DNA of 64,000 bases from Chitinophagaceae bacterium (GTDB lineage: Bacteria; Bacteroidota; Bacteroidia; Chitinophagales; Chitinophagaceae), in NCBI GenBank assembly GCA_047606825.1, contig JASGDY010000131.1:3657-67656 (forward strand). The letters run 5' to 3'. The position numbers and the translations under genes were made by a program. The first letter of the stretch is position 1. Every line of letters begins with the position of its first letter. The notes beneath the pieces were generated by a model. That model ran no database searches. It worked only from the letters and a program-made list of their open reading frames with translations, and was not told the DNA's origin. This document shows positions 8,204 through 64,000 of the stretch, one piece after another.

Positions 8204-9355
8204 TTAAGGTTCCTGGACAAACTTGATATTGTCGAGATTTAATTCGGAAACCGTTCCCGATGTGCCTACCTGCGCAAAATCCACTTTAGTGATTGTTGTC
8301 GGATCGATCATGGTTGTTCCCTCAACCGGCGTGGCAGAACTATAGCCATATCCAATAGTAGATAACTGTATCGTTGTGGTTTGCCAGCCGGTCCAGTTCA
8401 CACTCATATATTTGGTATAAACAGTGCTTACAGCCGTGCCATCTGCAGAATTGGCCGTTATAGTTACTCTTATCTTTGTGGTAGATGAATAGTCGCCCGG
8501 GTTGGCATCAAAGCTAAAATATATTTTATCTGCAGAAGCGGTCAGCTCCAGGGGCGTGGTATAAGTGCTCGCTCTCGGATTAAAGCCAACCCAGCCGCTG
8601 GATTCGGGGTTTACAACTGATAATTTGACAAACAGGCCTGAAACCGGATCCGGTGTCGCATTGGTATAAGAGGCGGTAATGGAACCGATGTAGGAGCTGC
8701 CCCGCGAATAAGCATCCCAGGTTGGACAAACGCCATTGCCGTCGAAATCTGTAAGCAGTATTTCCCCAAAACTAATCTGCGCCGTTCCGCCGGCCGTTAC
8801 AATAACCAACTGGCCGGAGCTGACACCATCAGGGACCGTGAACCGTATCTGAGATTCACTGTCAATGGTGTAATCTGTTACTTCGACTCCGTCCAGTGTA
8901 ATGGAGCTGATGTTTGCAAAATTGGTACCGGTTACTGTAATCTCATCGCCGCTTACACCGCTTATTGGTGAAATGGACTTGATATAAGGTATGGGCTGAA
9001 TTACTTTAAACTGAACCGTAACGGTGCTGCTGTCGCTGTTTTTTAAAACCACATCGTTCCACCCAAATTTGGCGCCGCTAGGTACATTGCAAAACAATAC
9101 AGAATCTGTGTTGTACGTAGAATTGAGATAGGTAGCTTTTATACCTCCAAAATCAATGGCTACAATATTGCCAAGGTTTTGACCGGTGAAATAGAAAAAC
9201 TGCCCCCTGATGCCGGAATCCGGTACGGCCTTTACATTGGTGGGTACCACTATTTCATTTTTGGTACAGCCTGTATGGGTAAAAACCGATCCTGATACAG
9301 CAATCAGTATTATAATATATAGTGAATACTTTTTCATCTTACTCTTTTTAGTCAT
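8204..9355 (-). CDS. IPT/TIG-domain surface glycan-binding lipoprotein (SGBP-B/XusE-like)
   Basis: Lipobox THTGC; two IPT/TIG-like repeats (PYIKSISPISGVSGDEITVTGTNF); C-terminal beta-sandwich ending LDNIKF; immediately downstream of susD. Confidence 0.8.
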   Translation of the reverse strand: MTKKSKMKKYSLYIIILIAVSGSVFTHTGCTKNEIVVPTNVKAVPDSGIRGQFFYFTGQNLGNIVAIDFGGIKATYLNSTYNTDSVLFCNVPSGAKFGWNDVVLKNSDSSTVTVQFKVIQPIPYIKSISPISGVSGDEITVTGTNFANISSITLDGVEVTDYTIDSESQIRFTVPDGVSSGQLVIVTAGGTAQISFGEILLTDFDGNGVCPTWDAYSRGSSYIGSITASYTNATPDPVSGLFVKLSVVNPESSGWVGFNPRASTYTTPLELTASADKIYFSFDANPGDYSSTTKIRVTITANSADGTAVSTVYTKYMSVNWTGWQTTTIQLSTIGYGYSSATPVEGTTMIDPTTITKVDFAQVGTSGTVSELNLDNIKFVQEP

Positions 9356-51690: not shown

Positions 51691-54684
51691 ATGAAGAAAA
51701 TATTGTTTTCCACTCTGATATTATGCGCGGCGGTTAGCACCGCCGATGCACAGGAACTGAAATTTACCAATGCCGCCACGCCTTGGGCTTATGATTCGCT
51801 GGGTAACCACCGCATATTGGTGGGTGTCAACGCAGCTGGAGATGTCGCGAAAGTCATCGTTCCGTGGCGCAGAAGGGACAATCATCCAGAGGAAAAAATG
51901 GTGTTCGTCGTGGATGCCAAAACCAATGAACGCATCTACAACGTTGTGCAGGAAAATATCACACGTGAAAAAGGAACGGTATATTTCCAACCGGTTTCCG
52001 GTGTAGGTGATTACTATATTTACTACATGCCCTATCGCCAGAAAGGGAGTCCATACTATCCCAAAGTGGAATATTACACGCCAGTCGGTACGGCACAACA
52101 GCCTTGGATAGACAAAATAAAACAAGGAAAAACCATTGTCGCCAGTGCTCTGGAACTCCAGGCCGTCAATGCTTTCAACAGCTTTTACCCAATGGAAGTG
52201 GTAGCAACGGAAAAAGAAAGACACACTTTGTTGGCGGCGCAACACAACGCGCCCTACATCGTATTTCCGGAAGACCGGTTGCATTCCATCCGTATGCGCT
52301 ACGATTTTCCATACAGGTGGGCACAGCAAGGCATCCGCAGCTCTTTTTCGGACGTAGCGGACAAAGGGGAAAATTTTGCGTACCAATTAGGCATCTATCC
52401 GCAAAAAGACACTTTGAAAAATGTCGTCATCCAGTTCTCTGATCTGAAAGACGAAAAGGGAAATATTTTGTCCAAAAACATCATGGAATGCATCAACAAC
52501 AAAGGTGTCAACTGGATAGGCATCCCTGAAACTTTTGAAGTCAACGTTCCCATAAACCAGATACAGCCGATGTGGTGTACAGTCGCCATTCCGGAAAATG
52601 CGGTCGCCGGAAACTATAAAGGCACTGTCACCGTCACGGCAAGCAACGCACCGTCCAAATCCATTGCCGTCAACCTCACTGTTACCAACAAAACCGCCAA
52701 AAACCACGGCGTGGACGAACCCTTGAAACAGACACGCCTCTCCTGGCTCAACTCTACCTTGGCAGCGAAAAACGAGGTCATCACGCCATACACCGATTTA
52801 AAAACCACAGGCAACAAAATCGATTTGCTGGGACGTTCCATAGAAATCGCGCCGAGCGGCTTCCCCCAACAAATCCAAACATACTTCACACCGGAAATGA
52901 CCTCCATCGGCACGACACCCAAAAACTTGCTGGTCGAGCCTATCCATTTCCATGTAAAAAAATCCGATGGGAAAGAAATAAAATTCCGCAACACACCCAT
53001 CGACTTTACCGAACAATCCGCCGGAACCGTCGCATGGAAAACTGCCAACGAATCTCCGGAACTGACGATGGACATCAACGCCGACCTCGAATACGACGGC
53101 TACCTCGACTATACGGTCAAGGTCATCGCCCAACAGGACATCGCCTTGCAGGACATCTGCCTGCACCTGCCCATCGTCCCCGAAAACGCGGAATACCTGA
53201 TGGGGCTGGGCTACAAAGGTGGCTACCGTAAAGATACGGTGCAATGGAAATGGGACGTCGCCCACAAAAACCAGGACGGCGCATGGGTCGGAACGGTCAA
53301 CGCAGGCGTGCAGTTTTCGCTGCGCGACCAGCACTATTCACGTCCACTCAACACCAATTTTTATCTGCAGAAACCATTGGTATTGCCGACATCCTGGGGC
53401 AACGGAGACAAGGGCGGCATTGACATTTTCAAAAAGGGGACTTCAGTTTTGGTCAACAATTACAGTGGCGCGCGCGACATGAAAAAAGGCGATACGCTAT
53501 ACTATAATTTCCGGCTGATCATCACGCCGTTCCACACCATCAACACCGACTTCCAGTGGTCGGCAAGATTTGTCCACAAATACTTAAACGTAGATACGGC
53601 AAAAGCACTGGGCGCGACGGTCGTCAATATCCACCAAGGCACGCCCATCAATCCTTATATCAACTATCCCTTTGTGAAGACCAAAGAGATGAAAGACTAT
53701 ATCGACAGCGCACACGCCGAAGGGCTGAAAGTCAAAATCTACAATACCGTGCGTGAACTTTCGAACCGTGCCTACGAACTTCCGGCATTGTTTAGCCTCG
53801 GACACGAAATATTTTCGGACGGTAAAAGCGGCGGCTATTCCTGGTTGCAGGAACATCTCGACACGGGATATATCGCGGCATGGTACACGCCGGCAGCCAA
53901 CGACGCGGCGATTATCAACAGCGGCATGAGCCGTTGGCACAACTACTACGTCGAAGGCATGAACTGGCTCACACAGAATGTCGGCATCGACGGCATCTAT
54001 CTGGACGACGTGGCATTTGACCGGAGCATCATGAAACGCATCAAGCGCGTATTGACCAAGGACAGACATCCCGGGCTGATAGACCTGCACTCCGCCAACC
54101 AATACAACAAAAGCGACGGTTTCAACAACAGCGCCAACCTGTATCTGGAACTGTTTCCGTATCTCAACAGGCTGTGGTTTGGCGAATATTTCGATTACGA
54201 ACACAACTCACCGGACTTTTTCCTGACAGAGATTTCGGGTATTCCTTTTGGATTGATGGGCGAGATGCTCCAAAGCGGCGGCAACCAATGGCGCGGATTG
54301 TTGTACGGCATGACGAGCCGTCTGCTCTGGGACGATTCGCGTGACCCGCGTCCAATATGGAAGGTGTGGGACAGTTTCGGAATGCAAGGTTCGCAGATGG
54401 TCGGCTATTGGGTCAAGGACAATCCCGTGAAAACCGACAATCCCAACGTCCCGATTACAATCTACAAAAAAGACAAAAAAGTATTGGTGGCATTGGCAAG
54501 CTGGGATTCCTCCAACGTCAGTATCCACCTCCATATCGACTGGAAAAAATTGGGAATCGACCCCGCAAAAACAAAAATCGTCGCGCATGAAATGAACGAC
54601 TTCCAACCTGCAAAAACTTTTGGCATCAACGACCCGATTGCAGTAGAACCTGCAAAAGGTTGGTTGTTGGAGATTGGGGAATAA
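51691..54684 (+). CDS. Secreted DUF6067-like putative glycoside hydrolase
   Basis: Signal peptide ending ADA-Q; WRRRD, INPYINYPF, KIYNTVREL, GIDGIYLDD, LWFGEYFDY and PFGLMGEML recalled as typical of DUF6067 proteins; not search-confirmed. Confidence 0.72.
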   Translation: MKKILFSTLILCAAVSTADAQELKFTNAATPWAYDSLGNHRILVGVNAAGDVAKVIVPWRRRDNHPEEKMVFVVDAKTNERIYNVVQENITREKGTVYFQPVSGVGDYYIYYMPYRQKGSPYYPKVEYYTPVGTAQQPWIDKIKQGKTIVASALELQAVNAFNSFYPMEVVATEKERHTLLAAQHNAPYIVFPEDRLHSIRMRYDFPYRWAQQGIRSSFSDVADKGENFAYQLGIYPQKDTLKNVVIQFSDLKDEKGNILSKNIMECINNKGVNWIGIPETFEVNVPINQIQPMWCTVAIPENAVAGNYKGTVTVTASNAPSKSIAVNLTVTNKTAKNHGVDEPLKQTRLSWLNSTLAAKNEVITPYTDLKTTGNKIDLLGRSIEIAPSGFPQQIQTYFTPEMTSIGTTPKNLLVEPIHFHVKKSDGKEIKFRNTPIDFTEQSAGTVAWKTANESPELTMDINADLEYDGYLDYTVKVIAQQDIALQDICLHLPIVPENAEYLMGLGYKGGYRKDTVQWKWDVAHKNQDGAWVGTVNAGVQFSLRDQHYSRPLNTNFYLQKPLVLPTSWGNGDKGGIDIFKKGTSVLVNNYSGARDMKKGDTLYYNFRLIITPFHTINTDFQWSARFVHKYLNVDTAKALGATVVNIHQGTPINPYINYPFVKTKEMKDYIDSAHAEGLKVKIYNTVRELSNRAYELPALFSLGHEIFSDGKSGGYSWLQEHLDTGYIAAWYTPAANDAAIINSGMSRWHNYYVEGMNWLTQNVGIDGIYLDDVAFDRSIMKRIKRVLTKDRHPGLIDLHSANQYNKSDGFNNSANLYLELFPYLNRLWFGEYFDYEHNSPDFFLTEISGIPFGLMGEMLQSGGNQWRGLLYGMTSRLLWDDSRDPRPIWKVWDSFGMQGSQMVGYWVKDNPVKTDNPNVPITIYKKDKKVLVALASWDSSNVSIHLHIDWKKLGIDPAKTKIVAHEMNDFQPAKTFGINDPIAVEPAKGWLLEIGE

Positions 54685-55140: not shown

Positions 55141-55668
55141 ATGAAAGCATTAATATCTGCCTTGAAATATTGCGATGGGGAAGAAGCCTTTCAGGAGATT
55201 TTCCTCCTGACAAAAGGCAAAGTATATGCTTATTTTTTAAAGAAGACCAACTCTGCCGACGATGCGAAGGACCTCACACAGAATGTCTATTTCCGCCTTT
55301 GGAAATACCGCAAGAAGGTAAACGAGGACATATCGCTCGACCAGCATTTGTTTCAATATGCCAAACAAGTGTACATTGATTACCTGAAATCGCGGAAATC
55401 AACCTCTTACGTACCAGACATTCGATCCATGGAAAACAATAATGCCTTTTTGGGACAACCCGACGGCATTTTTGACAGGATGGAAAAAGAGAAAATCTTT
55501 GGCTATTTACAATCAGAGCCTCCCCTGAACCAGCATATTTTTATCCTCAACAAATGGGAAGGCTATTCCTACCAGCAACTGTCGGAAATGTTTTCCCTTT
55601 CCGTCAAAAGCATTGACAACTATATCAACAAAACCATGAAGCGGCTTAAAAAAAAAATCGGTTTTTAA
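55141..55668 (+). CDS. ECF sigma-70 family RNA polymerase sigma factor
   Basis: DAKDLTQNVYFRLWKYR (region 2), FILNKWEGYSYQQLSEMFSLSVKSIDNYI (region 4); -7 element TACATTTG at 55112-55119. Confidence 0.9.
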   Translation: MKALISALKYCDGEEAFQEIFLLTKGKVYAYFLKKTNSADDAKDLTQNVYFRLWKYRKKVNEDISLDQHLFQYAKQVYIDYLKSRKSTSYVPDIRSMENNNAFLGQPDGIFDRMEKEKIFGYLQSEPPLNQHIFILNKWEGYSYQQLSEMFSLSVKSIDNYINKTMKRLKKKIGF

Positions 55669-55704
55669 GGAGGAGTTTTCTACAGTTCATCGTAATACTA
55701 TACA

Positions 55705-56682
55705 GTGCGGAATTTATTTACAAAAAAAAATAAAGAAAAAACAAGTGCGGAACATTCTGAAACAGGTGATCCTGATTGGGATGCCGTATCTGACATTGAC
55801 GAGGGAAGTATAGACTGGGCAGATACCTGGAATACCATAAAAAGAGATGTTGGCAACTACCAAAAAAGAAAAGATGCAGTTAAAAGAGTTGTGACGGGTT
55901 CACTGATGCTGTTGTTTGTAGTAGGTAGTACAATGTACTATATAGGCTATCACAAGACGCAGTCCGCTGCTTATGCAACCTTGTACAACAAAGGACATCA
56001 TGAGTTATATTACCTATTAAGCGACAGTTCGAGGATGGTATTGTTTCCAGGAACAACGGTAAGACTACCCGAAAGCTACAACCAGCATACCCGTGAATTG
56101 TTTGTACAGGGAAAAGCACTTTTCATAGTACATAAGGATCGGACAAAACCATTCATCGTCCACTCGGCACATTTGGCAACATGCGCTATCGGAACCGAAT
56201 TTGTGGTGGAGAACAGACCAGACGAGCAGAAAGAGCTTGTCTACCTAGAAGAAGGGATTGTACAGGTCAATGTCAAGGGTAGCAATGTGTCCCATATACT
56301 GGCAGTAAAAGATACGTTGCACTATAATATTGCAAAACAAGTAGTATCCATTGCACATTATAGACCGGCTATGCCATTGTCTAAAAACTATGCGCACCGA
56401 GGGACTGGAGGCCAGAAGAATCATGTATCCAGAAAAGACAAGTCCGTCCAGAGACTCCAATGGTATTCATTTGACAATGCCTCCTTGGAAGACATATTCG
56501 GTCATCTGGAAAATATTTATGGCATCGAAATACGGTACACCAAAGCGGATGTCGTCGAAAAATATTTTATCGGAAAATTTTCATCCACAGATTCACTGTC
56601 ACACATATTGGACGTGATTACATCCTTAAACGAACTGAGATACAAAGAAGTTGCCGACGGCGTATATACGGTTTACAAATAG
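55705..56682 (+). CDS. FecR-family anti-sigma factor
   Basis: One TM helix; LSDSSRMVLFPGT, RELFVQGKALFIVHKDRTKPFIV, AIGTEFVV; C-terminal DUF4974-like FDNASLEDI...YGIEI. Confidence 0.9.
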   Translation: MRNLFTKKNKEKTSAEHSETGDPDWDAVSDIDEGSIDWADTWNTIKRDVGNYQKRKDAVKRVVTGSLMLLFVVGSTMYYIGYHKTQSAAYATLYNKGHHELYYLLSDSSRMVLFPGTTVRLPESYNQHTRELFVQGKALFIVHKDRTKPFIVHSAHLATCAIGTEFVVENRPDEQKELVYLEEGIVQVNVKGSNVSHILAVKDTLHYNIAKQVVSIAHYRPAMPLSKNYAHRGTGGQKNHVSRKDKSVQRLQWYSFDNASLEDIFGHLENIYGIEIRYTKADVVEKYFIGKFSSTDSLSHILDVITSLNELRYKEVADGVYTVYK

Positions 56683-56749
56683 GACAAAACATATAGGCAT
56701 ATAGGATCATAGTCATTTTTCTTTTTAAGTTCATCAATAATTTATTGTC

Positions 56750-59700
56750 ATGCGTAGTAAATGGAAACCAAAGTCCATGTGGGGACTGTTTGTCCCGAAA
56801 ATCGGACTGTTCGTATGTCTTTTCTCAATGAAAGGCAACATTTTAGCTCAAAAAGGCGGAGCAGCGATGAAAGGGCTTGTCCAAAATGAGAAAGGAGAAC
56901 CCTTGTCGGGAGCTAGCGTCACCATCAGTGACTCCGTTGCACATTTCACACAGGCAGCGACATCGGACAGCCTCGGTAGTTTTTATTTCAGTAACCTGCC
57001 GAGCAAGAATGCCCTCGCGATTGTCGTCGCTTTCAATGGTTACAAAACACAGACATTTAAAGATTATAAACTGACAGACAACGCAGTCACTTCTTTATAT
57101 GTCAAATTACTAAAAGATACAATAAACCTGGACGAGGTCGTGGTCGTTGGCTACGGCTCACAGCGTAAAAATCTTGTAGCCAGCGCCATATCCTCCGTTG
57201 GCATGGACAATATAACATCCCGTTCCATGCAGAACGTAAGCGAAGCACTGCAAGGGAAAGCCGCAGGTGTCATCGTTACCAATGAAGGCGGTGACCCTAC
57301 GGCAAGCCCTAGCGTGTATATACGCGGTATGGGAGGCATCAACGGAGAATCAGCACTATACGTTGTTGACGGCGTGATATACGAGAGCATGCCCAACATC
57401 AATTCCGATGATATAGCGTCCATGGACGTTCTGAAAGACGGAGCCGCGGCCATTTACGGAGCTAGGGCATCGGGCGGTGTTATTTTGATCACAACCAAGA
57501 AAGGGAAAAACGGCGCATTCAAAGCCTCTGTCGATGCCAAATACGGCGACCAGTCGGCTTGGCGCAAGTTGCATGCACTGAACGCTGAACAGTTTGCCAA
57601 CGCGATGAACACCGCAGCGGACAATGCCGGGGAAACCCGCAGTGATGCCTTTGACGCATCTGTCTATCCTGATGGACAGATTACAAGGACTGACTGGGTA
57701 GACGCGATTTTCCGACATGGCGCAACGAACGAATACAATGTCAATTTCAGCGGTGGCAACGACAGGTCAACCTTCTATGCAGGATTTGGGTACAGGAAAT
57801 CGCAGGCCATCCTGCTGAACACCTACAACCAGCGATACAATGCCACCTTAAATTCGGAACACAAAATAGGTACCTGGTTGACTTTTGGGGAACATTTGCA
57901 GTATTCATATAGCAACGGGAACGGCGCCAATACTTCGAGCGCCTACACGGGCGCAATACTTTCGGCTATTTTCTACCCGCCCAATGTAGCGGTCTATGAC
58001 AGTGCAGGCAACTTTTCCGGATTGCCCGAAGCCTATGCAGGCAGCTACGGCGATGTCATCAATCCGGTTGCCTACCTTAAACGTTTGGACTCCAAAAGCC
58101 CAACCCATGTGTTGATGATGAATCCATATATAGAAGCACGCATTACGGAAGACTTGAAATTTAGGTCCAGTTTTGCCTATACGGAGACCAACGCATTTGT
58201 AAAAACCTTTACCACAAGAGTTCCCGAAATTGGCAGGATATCGACTTCCAATATGTTGGAACAGACCACATCCACCACCCAGAACCTGCTGGCGGAACAG
58301 ACGCTCAGCTATGACCATAGATGGGGAAACCACCACCTGTCCTTGGTAGGCGGTACTACCTACCAAAAAAATACATACACCTCCACTTATGTGTACGGTA
58401 CGGACTTTGACGACGAAAGCGCACAGTACCGCTATCTTGAAAATGCAGGCACTATCTATAAACCAACGGACACGCGTACCGTCAGCATCCTACTTTCGTA
58501 TCTGGCAAGGGCAAACTATGATTACGACGGGAAATACCTGTTGTCTGTATTGGGCAGACGCGACGGTTCCTCTTTGGTATCAAGTCAGAACAAATATGAG
58601 AACTATGGTTCCGTGTCCGCCGGGTGGATAATATCCCGTGAAGATTTTTTTAAAGATATCTCGTGGGTCAGCTTGCTCAAGCTGAGGGGCAGCTACGGTA
58701 TATTGGGCAATCTTGGAAGCCTGCCCGCCAATGCCGTGGATCCCACACTGAGTACCACGACCGCCTATTTTGGTTCTACTTCCACCGCTAGCTACGGCTA
58801 TGCTGCAACCACGCTGCCCAACCCCAATCTCAAATGGGCAACCTCTAAGCAGACCGACATCGGCATTGACCTCAATCTGTTCGAAAACCATATCAGTATC
58901 ACGGCAGACTATTTCAACAAAAAGACGTCGGACATGATACTTTTAAAAACCTTGCCTAGCACGAGCGGTGTTACCAATGGACAGTATATCAACGCAGGCG
59001 ATGCACGGGACAGGGGTTTTGAATTTTCTATTAATTACAACAGCGCAAAGACCCGTGACTTTCAATACAGCGTGGGAGTCAATCTGACACATACTTCCAA
59101 CGAATTGCTGACTCTCTATGACGACTATACGTCCCTATCGACTTCGGACATCAATATCCGAAGTGCACTCACGCCAGTAGTCGTACAGATAGGTGCTCCG
59201 CTCTATGCGTTCAACCTAGTTAAAACAGCCGGCATTTTCAAGACGCAGGAAGAAATCGATAGCTATGCCAACAGTAGCGGCAGTCTGATACAGCCTGACG
59301 CTACGCCCGGCGACCTCAAATTTGTGGATGCCAACGGAGACGGATCGATTGATGACAATGACAGAGTCTTGATGGGCTCGGCGTTTCCTAAGCTGACTTA
59401 TGGCGTTTCGTTTAACGCGTCCTATAAAAACTTTGACCTAAACCTGTTTGTTCAGGGAGTCACATCCAACAAGGTATTCAACAGTTTAAGGTACCTGGCT
59501 TTGCAGGCAGGATTGGGCGGCCAGCATTACAATCTCTGGAACAAGGTATCGGATGCATGGTCGGAAACCAACCCCAATGGCTCCATTCCCAAATTATCCT
59601 TCTCGGATGCCAACGGAAACTTTAGCACCAATTCCGATTTCTTTCTGGAAAACGGTGCTTATATGCGACTGAAAAACCTTACGCTGGGATATACGTTCAG

Positions 59701-59884
59701 GCAAAATGTGCTTAGAAAAGCCAATATAGACGGCATCCGCCTCTACTTTACCTCCAACAACCTGTTGACCATCACCAAATATACAGGCTTTGACCCGGAA
59801 GTAGGTATGAGCAACTATGGCATCGACGTGGCGCGTTACCCACAGGCACGTAGTTTCATTGTAGGCCTCAACGTCAATTTCTAA
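56750..59884 (+). CDS. SusC/RagA TonB-dependent transporter
   Basis: LDEVVVVGYG, LKDGAAAIYGARASGGVILITTKKG, NPNLKWAT, YPQARSFIVGLNVNF. Confidence 0.95.
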   Translation: MRSKWKPKSMWGLFVPKIGLFVCLFSMKGNILAQKGGAAMKGLVQNEKGEPLSGASVTISDSVAHFTQAATSDSLGSFYFSNLPSKNALAIVVAFNGYKTQTFKDYKLTDNAVTSLYVKLLKDTINLDEVVVVGYGSQRKNLVASAISSVGMDNITSRSMQNVSEALQGKAAGVIVTNEGGDPTASPSVYIRGMGGINGESALYVVDGVIYESMPNINSDDIASMDVLKDGAAAIYGARASGGVILITTKKGKNGAFKASVDAKYGDQSAWRKLHALNAEQFANAMNTAADNAGETRSDAFDASVYPDGQITRTDWVDAIFRHGATNEYNVNFSGGNDRSTFYAGFGYRKSQAILLNTYNQRYNATLNSEHKIGTWLTFGEHLQYSYSNGNGANTSSAYTGAILSAIFYPPNVAVYDSAGNFSGLPEAYAGSYGDVINPVAYLKRLDSKSPTHVLMMNPYIEARITEDLKFRSSFAYTETNAFVKTFTTRVPEIGRISTSNMLEQTTSTTQNLLAEQTLSYDHRWGNHHLSLVGGTTYQKNTYTSTYVYGTDFDDESAQYRYLENAGTIYKPTDTRTVSILLSYLARANYDYDGKYLLSVLGRRDGSSLVSSQNKYENYGSVSAGWIISREDFFKDISWVSLLKLRGSYGILGNLGSLPANAVDPTLSTTTAYFGSTSTASYGYAATTLPNPNLKWATSKQTDIGIDLNLFENHISITADYFNKKTSDMILLKTLPSTSGVTNGQYINAGDARDRGFEFSINYNSAKTRDFQYSVGVNLTHTSNELLTLYDDYTSLSTSDINIRSALTPVVVQIGAPLYAFNLVKTAGIFKTQEEIDSYANSSGSLIQPDATPGDLKFVDANGDGSIDDNDRVLMGSAFPKLTYGVSFNASYKNFDLNLFVQGVTSNKVFNSLRYLALQAGLGGQHYNLWNKVSDAWSETNPNGSIPKLSFSDANGNFSTNSDFFLENGAYMRLKNLTLGYTFRQNVLRKANIDGIRLYFTSNNLLTITKYTGFDPEVGMSNYGIDVARYPQARSFIVGLNVNF

Positions 59885-59935
59885 CACATCATACACTAGT
59901 CAATTCTGACAATTGAAAAAATAAAAAATATACAG

Positions 59936-61462
59936 ATGAAACGTAGATTATTTTATATCAATAATATGGCAGTAGGCGCAATACTGCTATTGCTCGGTGG
60001 TTGTAAAAAGACACTCGACACAACGGCGGAGGTAACACCTACGTCCGAATCGTTCTGGATTTCCGAAGCTTCCGCACTAAAAGGCATCAATGCCATGTAC
60101 GAACAGTTTGACGGCGAGGAGTTTTACGGAAGAGGGTTTATGTGGTATATCAACGCCAGCGACGACATGATTACCGGACGTAGCAACAGCACGGCACAAA
60201 ACATCAAGAACTTTTCGAGCAATGCCATATCTGCGTCCTATCTGGCAGAACAGTGGTCTATGCGATTTATCGTCATTAAAAGAGCCAATGACGTGATCCG
60301 CAACCTGCCCAGGATTGCATTTGACGACGACTCTCTCAAAAACCGATATTTAGGGGAAGCCTATTTCCTGAGGGCACTGATGTATTTCCAGTTGACCTAC
60401 AACTATGCCGATGACAAAGCTGGTATTCCAATCATCAGAGAAACAGATTCAATACAGACAGAGGCAGTGGCAAGGGCAGCAAGTGCCAGCGTCAACTATG
60501 CCATGATAGATTCGGACTTTGTGCAGGCGGCAGCACTGTTGCCTTATTTCGACACTTATGAGAGTACAGACTATGGACATGCCCATAAAACGGCGGCGTG
60601 GGCTTACCTCAGCAAGTCCAAGTTGTACCAAAAAGATTACCAAGCTACCAGCCAATATGCCGACTCCGTCATCCTTAGCGGTAAGCATGCGTTGCTTTCC
60701 AATTACAAAGACGTATTTACCATTGCCAATAACTGGAGTTCTGAGTATATTTGGAGCGCGTACAGTACAGGTTCGATTACAGGCGGCTGGGGAAGTATCC
60801 TGCCAGGCGTCATGCTGGAAAACAAAGGTTGGGGATATTACAACGGTTGGGGATATTATACGCCGACCAAGGAACTCTACGATGAATTTGAGGACGGCGA
60901 CACAAGGCTTGCGGCAACAATACTGAAGCCGGGGGACACATTTACATTTTATGGCTCTTCCCGCACGTATGCGTCCGACAACAGTCTTAGCGGTTACCAG
61001 TTCAACAAATACATGGAACCATTTAGTTATTCATCGCCCGAAGGAACGTATGTCAGTACCAATGGCGACCATCCGACTACGTCCCTCTGCCCGCCTTTGA
61101 TAAGATATGCGGAAATTCTTCTTATCAAGGCAGAGGCGCTGATAATGCTGGGCGAAAGCGGCGATACTTACATCAACATGGTACGGGAAAGAGCCGGGCT
61201 GGACGACATCACCAATGCCGACCTTGACGACCTAAAACATGAAAGGCGTTGCGAACTGGCTGGCGAATGGGCAGACCGCCACCGCGACTTGGTCAGATGG
61301 GGCGACGCACAATCCACCTACGCCAATACATTGCACAGTTATTCGGGCAGCGTCGTATGGGCTGCAAGGACATTTGACTCGACCTATATGAACGTATGGC
61401 CAGTTCCGCAAAACGAGATTACAAACAGTGGTGGCGTCATCACACAAAATGCAGGTTGGTAA
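59936..61462 (+). CDS. SusD/RagB family lipoprotein
   Basis: Lipobox LGGC; GEAYFLRALMYFQL, IRYAEILLIKAEA, HERRCELAGE. Confidence 0.93.
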   Translation: MKRRLFYINNMAVGAILLLLGGCKKTLDTTAEVTPTSESFWISEASALKGINAMYEQFDGEEFYGRGFMWYINASDDMITGRSNSTAQNIKNFSSNAISASYLAEQWSMRFIVIKRANDVIRNLPRIAFDDDSLKNRYLGEAYFLRALMYFQLTYNYADDKAGIPIIRETDSIQTEAVARAASASVNYAMIDSDFVQAAALLPYFDTYESTDYGHAHKTAAWAYLSKSKLYQKDYQATSQYADSVILSGKHALLSNYKDVFTIANNWSSEYIWSAYSTGSITGGWGSILPGVMLENKGWGYYNGWGYYTPTKELYDEFEDGDTRLAATILKPGDTFTFYGSSRTYASDNSLSGYQFNKYMEPFSYSSPEGTYVSTNGDHPTTSLCPPLIRYAEILLIKAEALIMLGESGDTYINMVRERAGLDDITNADLDDLKHERRCELAGEWADRHRDLVRWGDAQSTYANTLHSYSGSVVWAARTFDSTYMNVWPVPQNEITNSGGVITQNAGW

Positions 61463-62259
61463 TGAAAATAAAAATGGATTTCAAACAATTATGGATGGGT
61501 GCTTTCCTGTCGCTCCCCTTTGTCTCGATCGGGCAGAATGCAGGCTATTCCCTCAACAAAGTGCATTCGCACAACGACTATTGGCAATCGCGTCCGTTTT
61601 ATCTGGCTTATGAACATGGGCTTGGCTCCGTGGAGGCCGACACGTATCTGTGGGACGGCGCACTGTTGGTCGCACACGATACGGTTGCCTTAAAAAAGGA
61701 AAATACCTTACAGCACCTGTATTTAGAGCCTTTGAAGGCAGCGTTGCTTTCGCATGGCGGTCATCCGTTTGCCGATACTTCGCTGCATATCCAGTTGCTG
61801 ATAGAGTTGAAAACGGAAGCCGACACGGAAATAAAAGCGATGGAAACGGCATTGCAGCAATATCCCGAAATCACCGACAACCCGCAGGTGCAAGTCGTGT
61901 TTACGGGCAACACGCCCTCCGTAAAGGCGATGCTTGCCTGTCCGACCTATATGCGGTTTGACGGCCAGCTTTCACACACGTATCCGCCGGAGGCTTTGGC
62001 GCATATTGCCATGCTGAGCGACAATCTTCAGGATTTCATAACTTGGGACGGAAAAGGCAAGCTCACGCAAAAGCAGGAAAAGGTTTTGCGTCGCTGGGTG
62101 AAGAAAGGCCATGACTTGGGAAAGAAAGTACGTTTTTGGAACGCCCCGGACAACCCGCTTGCCTGGGAAACATTTATGCGTCTCGGCGTGGACTATATCA
62201 ACACAGACCATATCGAAGCCGTCACCCAATTTTTTGAAAAGTTAAACCAAAAACAATGA
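61462..62259 (+). CDS. Secreted PI-PLC/GDPD-superfamily phosphodiesterase (Aim6-like HSHNDY family)
   Basis: VHSHNDY, GSVEADTYL...LLVAHD, LLIELK, KVRFWNAPD, GVDYINTDH; TAATG coupling to susD. Confidence 0.82.
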   Translation: MKIKMDFKQLWMGAFLSLPFVSIGQNAGYSLNKVHSHNDYWQSRPFYLAYEHGLGSVEADTYLWDGALLVAHDTVALKKENTLQHLYLEPLKAALLSHGGHPFADTSLHIQLLIELKTEADTEIKAMETALQQYPEITDNPQVQVVFTGNTPSVKAMLACPTYMRFDGQLSHTYPPEALAHIAMLSDNLQDFITWDGKGKLTQKQEKVLRRWVKKGHDLGKKVRFWNAPDNPLAWETFMRLGVDYINTDHIEAVTQFFEKLNQKQ

Positions 62260-63125
62260 TGCGTAGAAGTCATTTGAACACCTTACCGTCATTCCCGCGT
62301 AGGCGGGAATCTTTTCTACTGGTCGTTGTTTGTATCGCAGCTTGTACAATAGCCAGAGCGCAAGAAAGGGAAGTTATATTGCAGGGGACGTACAATTTCC
62401 GCGATATCGGCGGCTATCCAACCAAAGGCGGGAAAAAAATCAAATGGGAAAAGCTTTACCGCTCTGCATTCCTAACAGGACTGACAGCGGAAGACCTGGA
62501 CATTCTGCAAAGCCGCAAGGTTGCCCGTGTCATCGACTTCCGAGGTCCCAAGGAGATTGCTTTTGCGCCGGACAAGCTGCCGCAAGGCACACAGCATATT
62601 GTGCTTTCGGCGGGAAGTGTCAACGACGGCCCTGACGACTGGGAGGACATGGCAAACGAGATGAAAACCAAAACGGAAGACGAATCCGAACAGGGCGCAT
62701 ATAACTATTACCGCAATGTGTCTTCGTTTGCCGACCGCTACCGACCGATGTTTGAACAGATGCTGAAACTGCCGCAGGACAGTGCATTGGTATTCCATTG
62801 CGTCGGCGGAAAAGACAGGACCGGTATTGCCGCCGCCCTGATACAGTATGTGCTGGGCGTGGACTACAAGGATATCATGAGTGATTTTGAACTGACCAAC
62901 CAATACCGCGCACGTTACAACAAGGAAATATCCGAACTCCTCGTCCGAAAATACGGCGTATCGCCCGACCGCGCCAAGTTGTATGGCCTGGCAAAAGCCA
63001 AATTCCTGCAAGCATCCTTTGACGCATTGGCAAAGCAATATGGTTCGTTGGATTTGTTCGTCAAAAACGGTCTAGGGCTGGACGACAGCAAAATCGCAAA
63101 GCTGAAAGCAATGTATTTGTATTAA
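62256..63125 (+). CDS. Secreted tyrosine/lipid/inositol phosphatase (Y_phosphatase3, CX5R)
   Basis: YNFRDIGGY, LYRSA, VIDFR, VFHCVGGKDRTG P-loop, IMSDFELTN; signal peptide. Confidence 0.9.
   Translation: MMRRSHLNTLPSFPRRRESFLLVVVCIAACTIARAQEREVILQGTYNFRDIGGYPTKGGKKIKWEKLYRSAFLTGLTAEDLDILQSRKVARVIDFRGPKEIAFAPDKLPQGTQHIVLSAGSVNDGPDDWEDMANEMKTKTEDESEQGAYNYYRNVSSFADRYRPMFEQMLKLPQDSALVFHCVGGKDRTGIAAALIQYVLGVDYKDIMSDFELTNQYRARYNKEISELLVRKYGVSPDRAKLYGLAKAKFLQASFDALAKQYGSLDLFVKNGLGLDDSKIAKLKAMYLY
62291..62310. repeat. ATTCCC-N8-GGGAAT palindromic repeat inside the phosphatase 5' coding region
   Basis: ATTCCCGCGTAGGCGGGAAT, translated SFPRRRES; degenerate relative at 49540-49562. Confidence 0.7.
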
Positions 63126-63155
63126 AAAAAGCCAACAACGATTAAAACAGACTGA

Positions 63156-64000
63156 ATGGCGAAGAAAAAAAGACATGGATTGAATGTATGGTGCAATATA
63201 TTGGCATTGGGTGGTTGCTTGTTTTCGGCACACGCCCAGCAAAACAATCCCGCTGATGCCGCCCGACAATTGGTCGCAAGAGTGCTGCCAAGCTACGCCG
63301 ACAGCTTCGCTTTTGAAGTATTGACGGACTGCGCCAAAGACAGTTTCTCCATTGTCATGCGCAAGGACGGTAGGGTGTTGATACACGGCAACAACGGCGT
63401 GTCGATGGCTTCGGGATTTTATACCTATCTCACGGACTATTGCCATGCCAATATCACTTGGGACAGCCGCCAATTGGACATGCCGGTTCCGATGCCTAAA
63501 CCCGTCGGCACGGTTGGAAAATCTTCTTTGTACAAAGACCGCTACTATCTCAACTACTGTACCTACAACTATTCGATGTCGTGGTGGGACTGGAACCGCT
63601 GGCAACAGGAAATCGACTGGATGGCTATGCACGGCATCAATATGCCTTTGGCGTTGACGGGAGAGGAAGCTGTCTGGAAAGAAGTATATAGCGACCTGGG
63701 ATTGAGCCGACAGGATTTGGGTACGTTTTTTTCGGGTCCAGCATATTTTTCCTGGTTTTGGATGGGCAATCTGGACGGTTGGAACGGTCCGCTTTCGGAC
63801 AACTGGATGTCCCGCCAACGGCAATTACAACAGAAAATCCTCCAAAGGGAAAGAGAACTGGGAATGACACCCGTACTTCCGGCTTTTACCGGACACGTAC
63901 CCCAATCCCTGCGTAAACACTATCCACAGGCAAAAATCAAAAACACCAACTGGGACGCAGGTTTTGAGGATGTCTGCATTTTGGATGCGGAAGACCCACT
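63156..64000 (+). CDS. GH89 alpha-N-acetylglucosaminidase, N-terminal part (3' end outside window; absent from the ORF track)
   Basis: Manual translation from ATG 63156: signal peptide, HGNNGVSMASG, RYYLNYCTYNYSMSWWDWNRWQQEIDWMAMHGINMPLALTGEEAVW, GPAYFSWFWMGNLDGWNGPL, ELGMTPVLPAFTGHVP. Confidence 0.93.
   Translation, partial: MAKKKRHGLNVWCNILALGGCLFSAHAQQNNPADAARQLVARVLPSYADSFAFEVLTDCAKDSFSIVMRKDGRVLIHGNNGVSMASGFYTYLTDYCHANITWDSRQLDMPVPMPKPVGTVGKSSLYKDRYYLNYCTYNYSMSWWDWNRWQQEIDWMAMHGINMPLALTGEEAVWKEVYSDLGLSRQDLGTFFSGPAYFSWFWMGNLDGWNGPLSDNWMSRQRQLQQKILQRERELGMTPVLPAFTGHVPQSLRKHYPQAKIKNTNWDAGFEDVCILDAEDP

Follow-up and report, generated by a model that had tools for sequence, protein, structure and literature searches.

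What kind of substrate would call for a SusC/SusD transporter, a phosphodiesterase, a phosphatase and an alpha-N-acetylglucosaminidase in a single run of genes? The question is raised by a locus at positions 55141-64000 of a 64,000-nucleotide stretch of DNA from a Chitinophagaceae bacterium (assembly GCA_047606825.1). This stretch, here called the window, spans C131:3657-67656 (contig JASGDY010000131.1) of a 3.97-Mb, 132-contig genome (G000), and the contig extends 13.6 kb past it. Our answer, which we hold to be probable but far from assured, is that the locus would be a hybrid system that imports and periplasmically dismantles inositol-phosphate glycans bearing glucosamine or N-acetylglucosamine (GlcN and GlcNAc; together GlcN(Ac)), of the glycosyl inositol phosphorylceramide (GIPC) or glycosylphosphatidylinositol (GPI) type. 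It appears to be an organophosphate system of the Pus2 type with an exchanged phosphomonoesterase and an added GH89-NagX-GH92 module; its Pus2-like membership is architectural, as judged from gene order and domain content. The Pus2-type transporter, with its pair of diesterase and monoesterase, fits the uptake and dephosphorylation of head groups; GH92, NagX and GH89 fit the removal of alpha-linked mannose (Man) and GlcN; and inositol as the end product would accord with the genes for myo-inositol oxygenase (MIOX) and phosphatidylinositol-specific phospholipase C (PI-PLC) found in sister loci.

Genes were called from the list of open reading frames (ORFs) together with Pfam and NCBIfam scans. 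Beyond the window, coordinates are those of L002, to which 58343 is added to obtain extrapolated window coordinates. The features of the locus, including those of its polysaccharide utilization locus (PUL)-like tail, are as follows.

55141-55668, + strand: extracytoplasmic function (ECF)-type sigma factor, 175 aa (Sigma70_r2 and Sigma70_r4_2)
55705-56682, + strand: FecR-type anti-sigma factor, 325 aa (FecR and FecR_C domains)
56750-59884, + strand: SusC/RagA TonB-dependent transporter, 1044 aa (TIGR04056, 796 bits, cut-off 368; SusC signature)
59936-61462, + strand: SusD-like surface lipoprotein, 508 aa (SusD_RagB, 119 bits, and SusD-like_3)
61462-62259 (ORF opens at 61396), + strand: GDPD_2 phosphodiesterase, predicted periplasmic, ~265 aa (PF13653, HSHNDY)
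62256-63125, + strand: Y_phosphatase3 (CX5R) phosphomonoesterase, secreted, 289 aa (PF13350, 203 bits)
63156-64000, + strand: GH89 alpha-N-acetylglucosaminidase, truncated where the window stops; in full 739 aa, L002 4813-7032, or 63156-65375 extrapolated (NAGLU_N, NAGLU, NAGLU_C)
L002 7033-7512, beyond the window: repeat-filled spacer of 480 bp between GH89 and NagX, at the site of GH35 in related PULs
L002 7513-8649, beyond the window, + strand: NagX/HGSNAT-like transmembrane glucosamine N-acetyltransferase, 378 aa (HGSNAT_cat)
L002 8612-11146 (likely start near 8681), beyond the window, + strand: GH92-like protein with LamG (GH92, GH92N and Laminin_G_3; TIGR01180, 324 bits)

All seven window genes, from sigma through GH89, are co-oriented on the + strand. 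The SusD stop and the likely GDPD_2 start overlap at 61462 in the sequence TAATG, the GDPD_2 stop and the phosphatase start overlap in ATGA, and 30 bp separate the phosphatase gene from GH89. The tightly coupled seven-gene run with TAATG and 4-nt overlaps that had been described in the initial annotation is thus borne out by the ORFs, the Pfam matches, the junctions, and the HSHNDY and HCVGGKDRTG motifs. With adjacent SusC and SusD genes (TIGR04056, SusD_RagB) and with GH89 and GH92 downstream as degradative enzymes, the locus has the make-up of a PUL. Its genes beyond the window, which the initial annotation had proposed to read, include a complete GH89, a NagX-like and a GH92-like gene, but no alpha-glucuronidase was seen among them; 3' of the GH92-like gene lie unrelated genes in convergent orientation.

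The Pus2-like front half

In Flavobacterium johnsoniae, the PUSII/Pus2 locus consists of a sigma factor, an anti-sigma factor, PusC2 (Fjoh_3251), PusD2 (Fjoh_3250) and PhoA1 (Fjoh_3249), the last of which carries both PF00245 and PF13653, and it is induced on phosphate depletion (Lidbury 2020, PMC8115612). Pus1 and Pus2 are jointly needed for growth on phosphatidylinositol (PtdIns) and glycerophosphoinositol (GroPI) as phosphorus sources; PusD1 and PusD2 bind inositol-1-phosphate and GroPI, the inositol ring in PusD2 by a pocket with a conserved Trp (W297), and GroPI is probably not the preferred substrate of Pus2 (Connolly 2026, bioRxiv 10.64898/2026.09.03.749221). GH89, glucosamine and tyrosine-type phosphatases are unmentioned in that preprint. 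The front half of the window locus has the same order of sigma, anti-sigma, SusC, SusD and a PF13653 enzyme coupled to a monoesterase.

The PF13653 enzyme matches its family at 45.4 bits (cut-off 27) and the canonical glycerophosphodiester phosphodiesterase (GDPD) family PF03009 at 18.6 bits, which is under the cut-off of 23.6; its gene most likely starts at M23 of the ORF, that is at 61462, with a predicted signal peptide directly after. An AlphaFold2 model built on a 56-sequence alignment is a TIM barrel (predicted local distance difference test score, pLDDT, 92.9), whose nearest solved folds in Foldseek, at a template-modelling (TM) score of ~0.5, are the GDPDs 3no3, 1zcc and GlpQ 5t91, together with GDPD-like phospholipase D (PLD) and sphingomyelinase D (SMase D) enzymes. 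No PI-PLC occurs among the 50 best Foldseek matches of the model or in a PDB sequence search, which returned only a weak C-terminal GDPD match. Of the initial description of this enzyme as 'PI-PLC/GDPD-like', the likeness to GDPDs stands, but that to PI-PLC does not. Residues H35, H37, N38, D39, Y40, E58, D60, H72, K117 and R224, numbered from the 61462 start, are invariant in the 56 sequences and D115 is nearly so; they may correspond to the two-His plus acidic metal site of GDPD and SMase D enzymes. The Pfam score, the TIM barrel and the conserved His and acidic residues all place the enzyme in the GDPD/PLC-like phosphodiesterase superfamily (PF13653), and its domain is the one found in F. 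johnsoniae PhoA1.

These folds also bear on a teichoic-acid or polyol-phosphate system, in which GH89 would strip alpha-GlcNAc and a GlpQ-like GDPD would depolymerise poly(glycerol or ribitol phosphate), with Pi then freed by the phosphatase. B. subtilis GlpQ (5t91) is one of the GDPDs among the closest folds, and Gram-positive walls commonly bear alpha-GlcNAc on polyol phosphate. Moreover, pusCD-like pairs occur beside glpQ-like genes (10.64898/2026.09.03.749221). We nevertheless regard such a system as improbable, given that the canonical GDPD score lies under its cut-off, that the PF13653-bearing PhoA1 and Pus2 are tied to inositol lipids, that the co-localisation with MIOX, PI-PLC and the SSF symporter described below indicates inositol and not glycerol, and that NagX, GH35 and GH92 would be left without an obvious role. 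Teichoic acids had been named among the candidate substrates at the outset, and nothing that was found favours them.

An alignment-based scan of species-representative genomes yielded 80 GDPD_2 loci, nearly all from Bacteroidota and many from Chitinophagaceae. In 39 of the 80, the domain is part of a GDPD_2::PhoA fusion of ~600-640 aa, with GDPD_2 at the N terminus and the alkaline phosphatase at the C terminus; the G000 genome yielded no orthologue of the PhoA domain. It is in this fused form that the GDPD_2 gene lies directly 3' of SusC (48-52% identity) and SusD (54-62%) in Chitinophaga, Mucilaginibacter, Sphingobacterium, Sphingobacteriaceae and Chryseobacterium, usually with sigma and FecR genes upstream. 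Its phosphoesterase partners are of four unrelated kinds: the PhoA fusion, an Exo_endo_phos::GDPD_2 fusion (521 aa, L043:9152-10717), a GDPD_2::beta-propeller::PF04185 fusion (1095 aa, L075:9902-13189 and L061:9992-13279) and the overlapping Y_phosphatase3 gene; the fusions in L043, L061 and L075 adjoin SusC/D. This pairing of one domain with four types of phosphoesterase implies a relay from diester through monoester to Pi. The Y_phosphatase3 member of the pair, assigned by Pfam and by its CX5R P-loop HCVGGKDRTG, has relatives in the PDB in 8dhi (E 1e-22) and M. tuberculosis PtpB 1ywf (E 5e-11), and it follows GDPD_2 with the same ATGA overlap in all four genomes of the genus. As for inositol, the L043 fusion is flanked by a LacI regulator on one side and an SSF sodium:solute symporter on the other and faces a MIOX-SusC-SusD operon, and in L075 MIOX and an SSF symporter lie near the GDPD_2 fusion. 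MIOX thus occurs within 8 kb in 2 of the 80 GDPD_2 loci; set against its presence as a single copy in 41 of 151 genomes of the family, this is above chance, albeit in a small sample.

The window SusC is 48-54% identical to the SusC proteins of GDPD_2::PhoA loci and of L177, and the window SusD is 54-65% identical to those of Pus2-like loci in Chitinophaga, Mucilaginibacter, Sphingobacterium, Chryseobacterium and L177, with 170 positions invariant across the window protein and these relatives. In an alignment confined to the window SusD clade, W299 and W305 are invariant. The sigma gene holds the same position in the congener G002 and in the Pus2-like loci L070, L079, L088, L090, L096, L105 and L177. 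The window SusC has CarboxypepD_reg (from residue 40), Plug and barrel domains and lacks the N-terminal STN domain that contacts FecR in PULs with trans-envelope sigma/anti-sigma signalling; the SusC of G002 is likewise short (1043 aa), and those of L177 and L113 carry STN (PF07660) in an N-terminal extension of ~90 aa. The initial wording 'ECF-controlled' is consequently right as to the adjacent sigma and FecR genes, but with a SusC without STN it expresses gene adjacency only. An upstream scan found no Pho-box-like repeat near the locus, and scans for sigma-70 consensus promoters and for terminators were uninformative for Bacteroidota. A search for public sequencing runs returned none.

Upstream of the sigma gene, at a distance of 456 bp, a gene at 51691-54684 (+ strand) encodes a 997-aa secreted protein matched end to end by PF19543 (GH123_N, 1466 bits). 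It was considered as a member of the locus and ruled out by the 456-bp gap and by its non-adjacency in G002. A 54%-identical copy of this protein sits 5 kb from GDPD_2 in L071.

The GH89 back half

The GH89 of the locus is the only one in the G000 genome; at its full length it matches NAGLU_N, NAGLU and NAGLU_C at 83.5, 471 and 290 bits. It is 50-56% identical to the GH89 enzymes of SusC-SusD-GH89-GH35-NagX-GH92 PULs, which were collected in a metagenome scan as 80 loci (L108-L187) within that range of identity. Their typical layout is [FG-GAP/ASPIC]-[sigma-FecR]-SusC-SusD-GH89-GH35-NagX-GH92(LamG)-[GH95], as seen in L113:3686-19578 and L133:4074-12139. Many of the contigs are short, which makes the counts lower bounds: among the 80 loci, SusD is present in at least 56, GH35 in at least 51, SusC in at least 50, the GH92-like gene in at least 36, NagX in at least 26, MIOX in at least 13 and GH95 in at least 9, and GDPD_2 (L177), Y_phosphatase3 (L122) and PI-PLC (PF16670; L113) were found in one each. 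This canonical PUL is widespread in soil and rhizosphere; we found no description of it in the literature searched, and it may be as interesting as the window locus itself. The back half of the window locus comes from such a PUL and keeps its order GH89-NagX-GH92: the GH92-like gene holds the same place after NagX, and in the canonical loci NagX stands one gene further from GH89, behind GH35.

That missing GH35 has left its site to the 480-bp spacer, where no GH35 remnant was detected. The spacer holds at least three dispersed repeat families of ~75-110 bp and 75-92% identity, with dozens of copies in the genome, which are intergenic elements resembling repetitive extragenic palindromic (REP) sequences or miniature inverted-repeat transposable elements (MITEs). 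Beyond it, the NagX-like protein matches HGSNAT_cat (PF07786) at 30.4 bits (cut-off 22) and the NagX equivalog model NF046061 at 155 bits (E 2e-45), under the cut-off of 480; it would thus be a member of the superfamily and not a NagX equivalog. By inspection, the His in its LQHAKWFG motif stands at the place expected of the acetyl carrier. Fitness data show that five bacteria depend on NagX homologues to use glucosamine, and NagX has been proposed to acetylate periplasmic GlcN from cytoplasmic acetyl-CoA, as human HGSNAT does ahead of NAGLU (PMC9007349). The pairing of NagX with GH89 therefore indicates an alpha-linked, non-acetylated GlcN. Four more NagX/HGSNAT-like paralogues occur in G000 (C50, C129, C112 and C40; 39-53% identity), a genome of 4 Mb with a single GH89, and the family clearly has other roles there.

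In 13 of the canonical loci, MIOX (PF05153, E 1e-105) is inserted between SusD and GH89; these 13 form one clade in the GH89 tree, that is, one retained insertion. In L113, a Ca2+-dependent PI-PLC (PF16670, E 1e-129) is encoded just 5' of the regulators. As a general neighbour of GH89 PULs, PI-PLC was ruled out by its presence in 1 of the 80 loci.

The same back half could also be read as part of a classical PUL for host or microbial glycans, acting on an alpha-GlcNAc-capped or GlcN polysaccharide (heparosan- or heparan-like, mucin-type, or a fungal alpha-GlcNAc-mannan), with the phosphoesterases stripping phosphate decorations as in yeast phosphomannan. The known substrates of GH89 are indeed heparan or heparosan and alpha-GlcNAc-capped mucin, and the PULs with which B. 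thetaiotaomicron attacks yeast mannan reportedly combine GH92 with a phosphatase. Yet the locus has no lyases, sulfatases, GH88, GH76 or GH125, its relatives come from soil and rhizosphere, and its links are to MIOX, PI-PLC and Pus2; we judge this explanation very improbable.

Linkage of the halves and the candidate substrate

The initial annotation had proposed to look for GH89 beside the diesterase in other genomes, and three such cases were found. The congener G002 repeats the full arrangement (synteny within the genus was read from ORF lists, Pfam matches and genome-search coordinates), a metagenome-assembled genome of Spirosomataceae has SusD-GH29-GH89-NagX-GDPD_2::PhoA (L050), and a rhizosphere contig has sigma-FecR-SusC(54%)-SusD(65%)-GDPD_2-GH89-NagX (L177). 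The arrangement is rare all the same, with GDPD_2 in 1 of the 80 GH89 loci and GH89 in 1 of the 80 GDPD_2 loci. NagX is the next gene after GH89 in the window locus, G002, L050, L177 and L124, and it stands directly 3' of GDPD_2::PhoA in Niastella (L036) and Pseudosphingobacterium (L077); in Sphingobacterium (L096), GH29 follows GDPD_2::PhoA. The three GDPD_2-linked GH89 enzymes fall in three places of the GH89 tree, where well-supported branches require at least two independent joins.

In G002, the genes at L015:866-5179, convergent with the NagX end, encode a PF04185 phospholipase C/acid phosphatase with PLipase_C_C, a DAO-family FAD oxidoreductase and a HAD hydrolase, a set of the kind expected for phospholipid head groups.

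The most serious rival explanation is that of a fortuitous join, in which a Pus2-like module for scavenging phosphorus from simple phosphodiesters (GroPI, glycerophosphocholine (GroPC) or similar) gained, through recombination at repeats, the tail of an unrelated GH89-GH35-NagX-GH92 PUL, the halves now acting on different substrates or the back half decaying. Several facts speak for it and at the same time weigh against the reading that we favour, a joint attack on GlcN(Ac)-bearing inositol-phosphate glycans. In the congeners G001 and G003, the front module SusC-SusD-GDPD_2-Y_phosphatase3 stands alone, followed by neither GH89 nor NagX. GH35 has been lost and dispersed repeats fill the 480-bp junction of GH89 and NagX, so that what is left of the back half may be in decay. 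The GH89 of G002 (C1:3385227-3387382) falls into two reading frames that break near residue 648, owing either to pseudogenisation or to a fault in the assembly. No phosphoesterase gene of those searched for was present in 77 of the 80 GH89 loci, GH89 orthologues in other members of the family lie on different contigs from GDPD_2, and PusD genes are rarely flanked by CAZymes (10.64898/2026.09.03.749221).

Further points count against our reading. The window SusC is 29% identical to the Flavobacterium Pus2-like SusC of L082, and the SusD match to that locus (Flavobacterium algoritolerans) is barely detectable, C-terminal only and 28% identical. MIOX was not found in the G000 genome, the association of MIOX with GH89 goes back to a single evolutionary event and that of PI-PLC to one locus.

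Against a fortuitous join stands the recurrence of the association: GH89, NagX or both have joined GDPD_2 in several lineages and in differing gene orders (the window lineage with G002, L050, L177, L036 and L077), both modules have attracted MIOX independently, and GH89 follows the phosphatase gene after only 30 bp in the same orientation. On these grounds we think a chance assembly unlikely, though a good deal less so than the other alternatives. The substrate first proposed, alpha-GlcNAc on a phosphodiester or inositol-phosphate scaffold, accordingly gains from the Pus2-like front half, NagX, the MIOX and PI-PLC neighbours, the SSF symporter near GDPD_2 and the synteny in G002, L050 and L177, but it is held in check by the rarity of joint loci, by the two congeners without GH89 and by a diesterase model that is nearer to GDPD and PLD folds than to PI-PLC.

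From the observed gene content, junctions, domain and fold assignments, conserved catalytic residues, and patterns of synteny and fusion, we infer all the catalytic steps of the following scheme for such glycans. Soluble head groups, freed extracellularly by the bacterium's own or foreign phospholipases, would be bound by SusD and imported by SusC. In the periplasm, the metal-dependent GDPD_2 would cut the remaining phosphodiester, for instance glycerol-P-inositol or another alcohol-P bridge, to a phosphomonoester, from which Y_phosphatase3 would take off the phosphate as Pi. The GH92-like enzyme may then trim alpha-mannose, NagX would N-acetylate the exposed GlcN from cytoplasmic acetyl-CoA, and GH89 would finally cleave the alpha-GlcNAc, by the same two-step logic that HGSNAT and then NAGLU follow in the lysosome.

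Alpha-GlcN beside inositol phosphate is a hallmark of three kinds of compound: GPI anchors (Man-alpha1,4-GlcN-alpha1,6-Ins-P-lipid), some fungal GIPCs (GlcN-alpha1,2-Ins-P-Cer) and the plant GIPC series with glucuronic acid (GlcA), GlcN(Ac)-alpha1,4-GlcA-alpha1,2-Ins-P-Cer. GlcN-GlcA-Ins-P, GlcNAc-GlcA-Ins-P and Man-GlcA-Ins-P occur as soluble cleavage products of GIPC in Botrytis-infected tomato and Arabidopsis (PMC11496612). An alpha-glucuronidase, which the GlcA-alpha1,2-Ins of plant GIPC would require, was seen in no locus, which also tells against our reading in its plant form; GPI or fungal GlcN-Ins cores are therefore a closer fit than plant GIPC. For variants that carry galactose or fucose, the canonical PUL would have suitable enzymes in its GH35 and GH95.

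A wider proposal may be put forward more tentatively, and we would sooner doubt it than rely on it: soil and rhizosphere Bacteroidota might own a catabolic route dedicated to the GlcN-alpha-inositol core that GPI anchors and plant and fungal GIPCs contain, comprising SusC/D import, removal of phosphodiester and phosphomonoester, trimming of alpha-mannose and beta-galactose, transmembrane N-acetylation of GlcN by NagX as in the lysosome, cleavage by GH89 and, in some lineages, entry of the freed inositol into metabolism through MIOX, with the window locus as a variant that imports the head group with its phosphate still attached. GIPCs are major outer-leaflet lipids of the plant plasma membrane, and glycolipids of the GPI and GIPC types are ubiquitous in fungi and protists. 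We know of no bacterial pathway for GIPC or GPI glycan head groups, and to our knowledge the characterised PusCD systems handle only unglycosylated phosphoinositol compounds. The initial statement that no characterised PUL exists for these substrates is hence apt for glycosylated head groups but not for phosphoinositol lipids, for which PusCD1/2 have been characterised. If the proposal is true, these abundant eukaryotic membrane glycoconjugates would for the first time have a described pathway in bacteria. The window locus and the canonical PUL supply candidate genes for its transporter, diesterase, phosphatase, acetyltransferase and glycosidases; they suggest which class of compounds bacterial GH89 and NagX may naturally act on away from animal hosts, and they would link the acquisition of carbon and phosphorus in rhizosphere Bacteroidota.

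Comparison with known systems

From F. johnsoniae Pus2, which it resembles in architecture, the window locus differs in that its monoesterase is a separate Y_phosphatase3 protein, whereas that of Pus2 is a fused PhoA, in that GH89, NagX and GH92 genes, on which the Pus papers are silent, are appended to it, and in that its SusC lacks STN. With the canonical rhizosphere PUL it shares GH89 (50-56% identity), NagX (~50%) and the GH92-like gene (~35%) in the same order, and in many of those loci sigma and FecR genes likewise lie upstream. The SusC/D pair of the canonical PUL is, however, only ~31% identical to that of the window; it has GH35 and, in one clade, MIOX, and it lacks GDPD_2 and phosphatase genes save for the GDPD_2 of L177 and a Y_phosphatase3 near the module in L122.

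The yeast alpha-mannan PULs of B. thetaiotaomicron (Cuskin 2015) are said to join GH92 alpha-mannosidases with a phosphatase for phosphorylated glycans, and GH92 and a phosphatase stand in one PUL in the window locus too; but the enzyme families of the mannan PULs are others (GH76, GH125, GH38 and an EEP phosphatase), and these PULs are not known to have GH89, NagX or GDPD_2. In the lysosomal route for heparan sulfate, GlcN must be acetylated by HGSNAT before NAGLU can cleave it. The window locus likewise pairs a homologue of that transmembrane N-acetyltransferase with a GH89, but here the setting is the bacterial periplasm and a SusC/D locus, and the aglycone is presumed to be inositol or GlcA-inositol instead of heparan.

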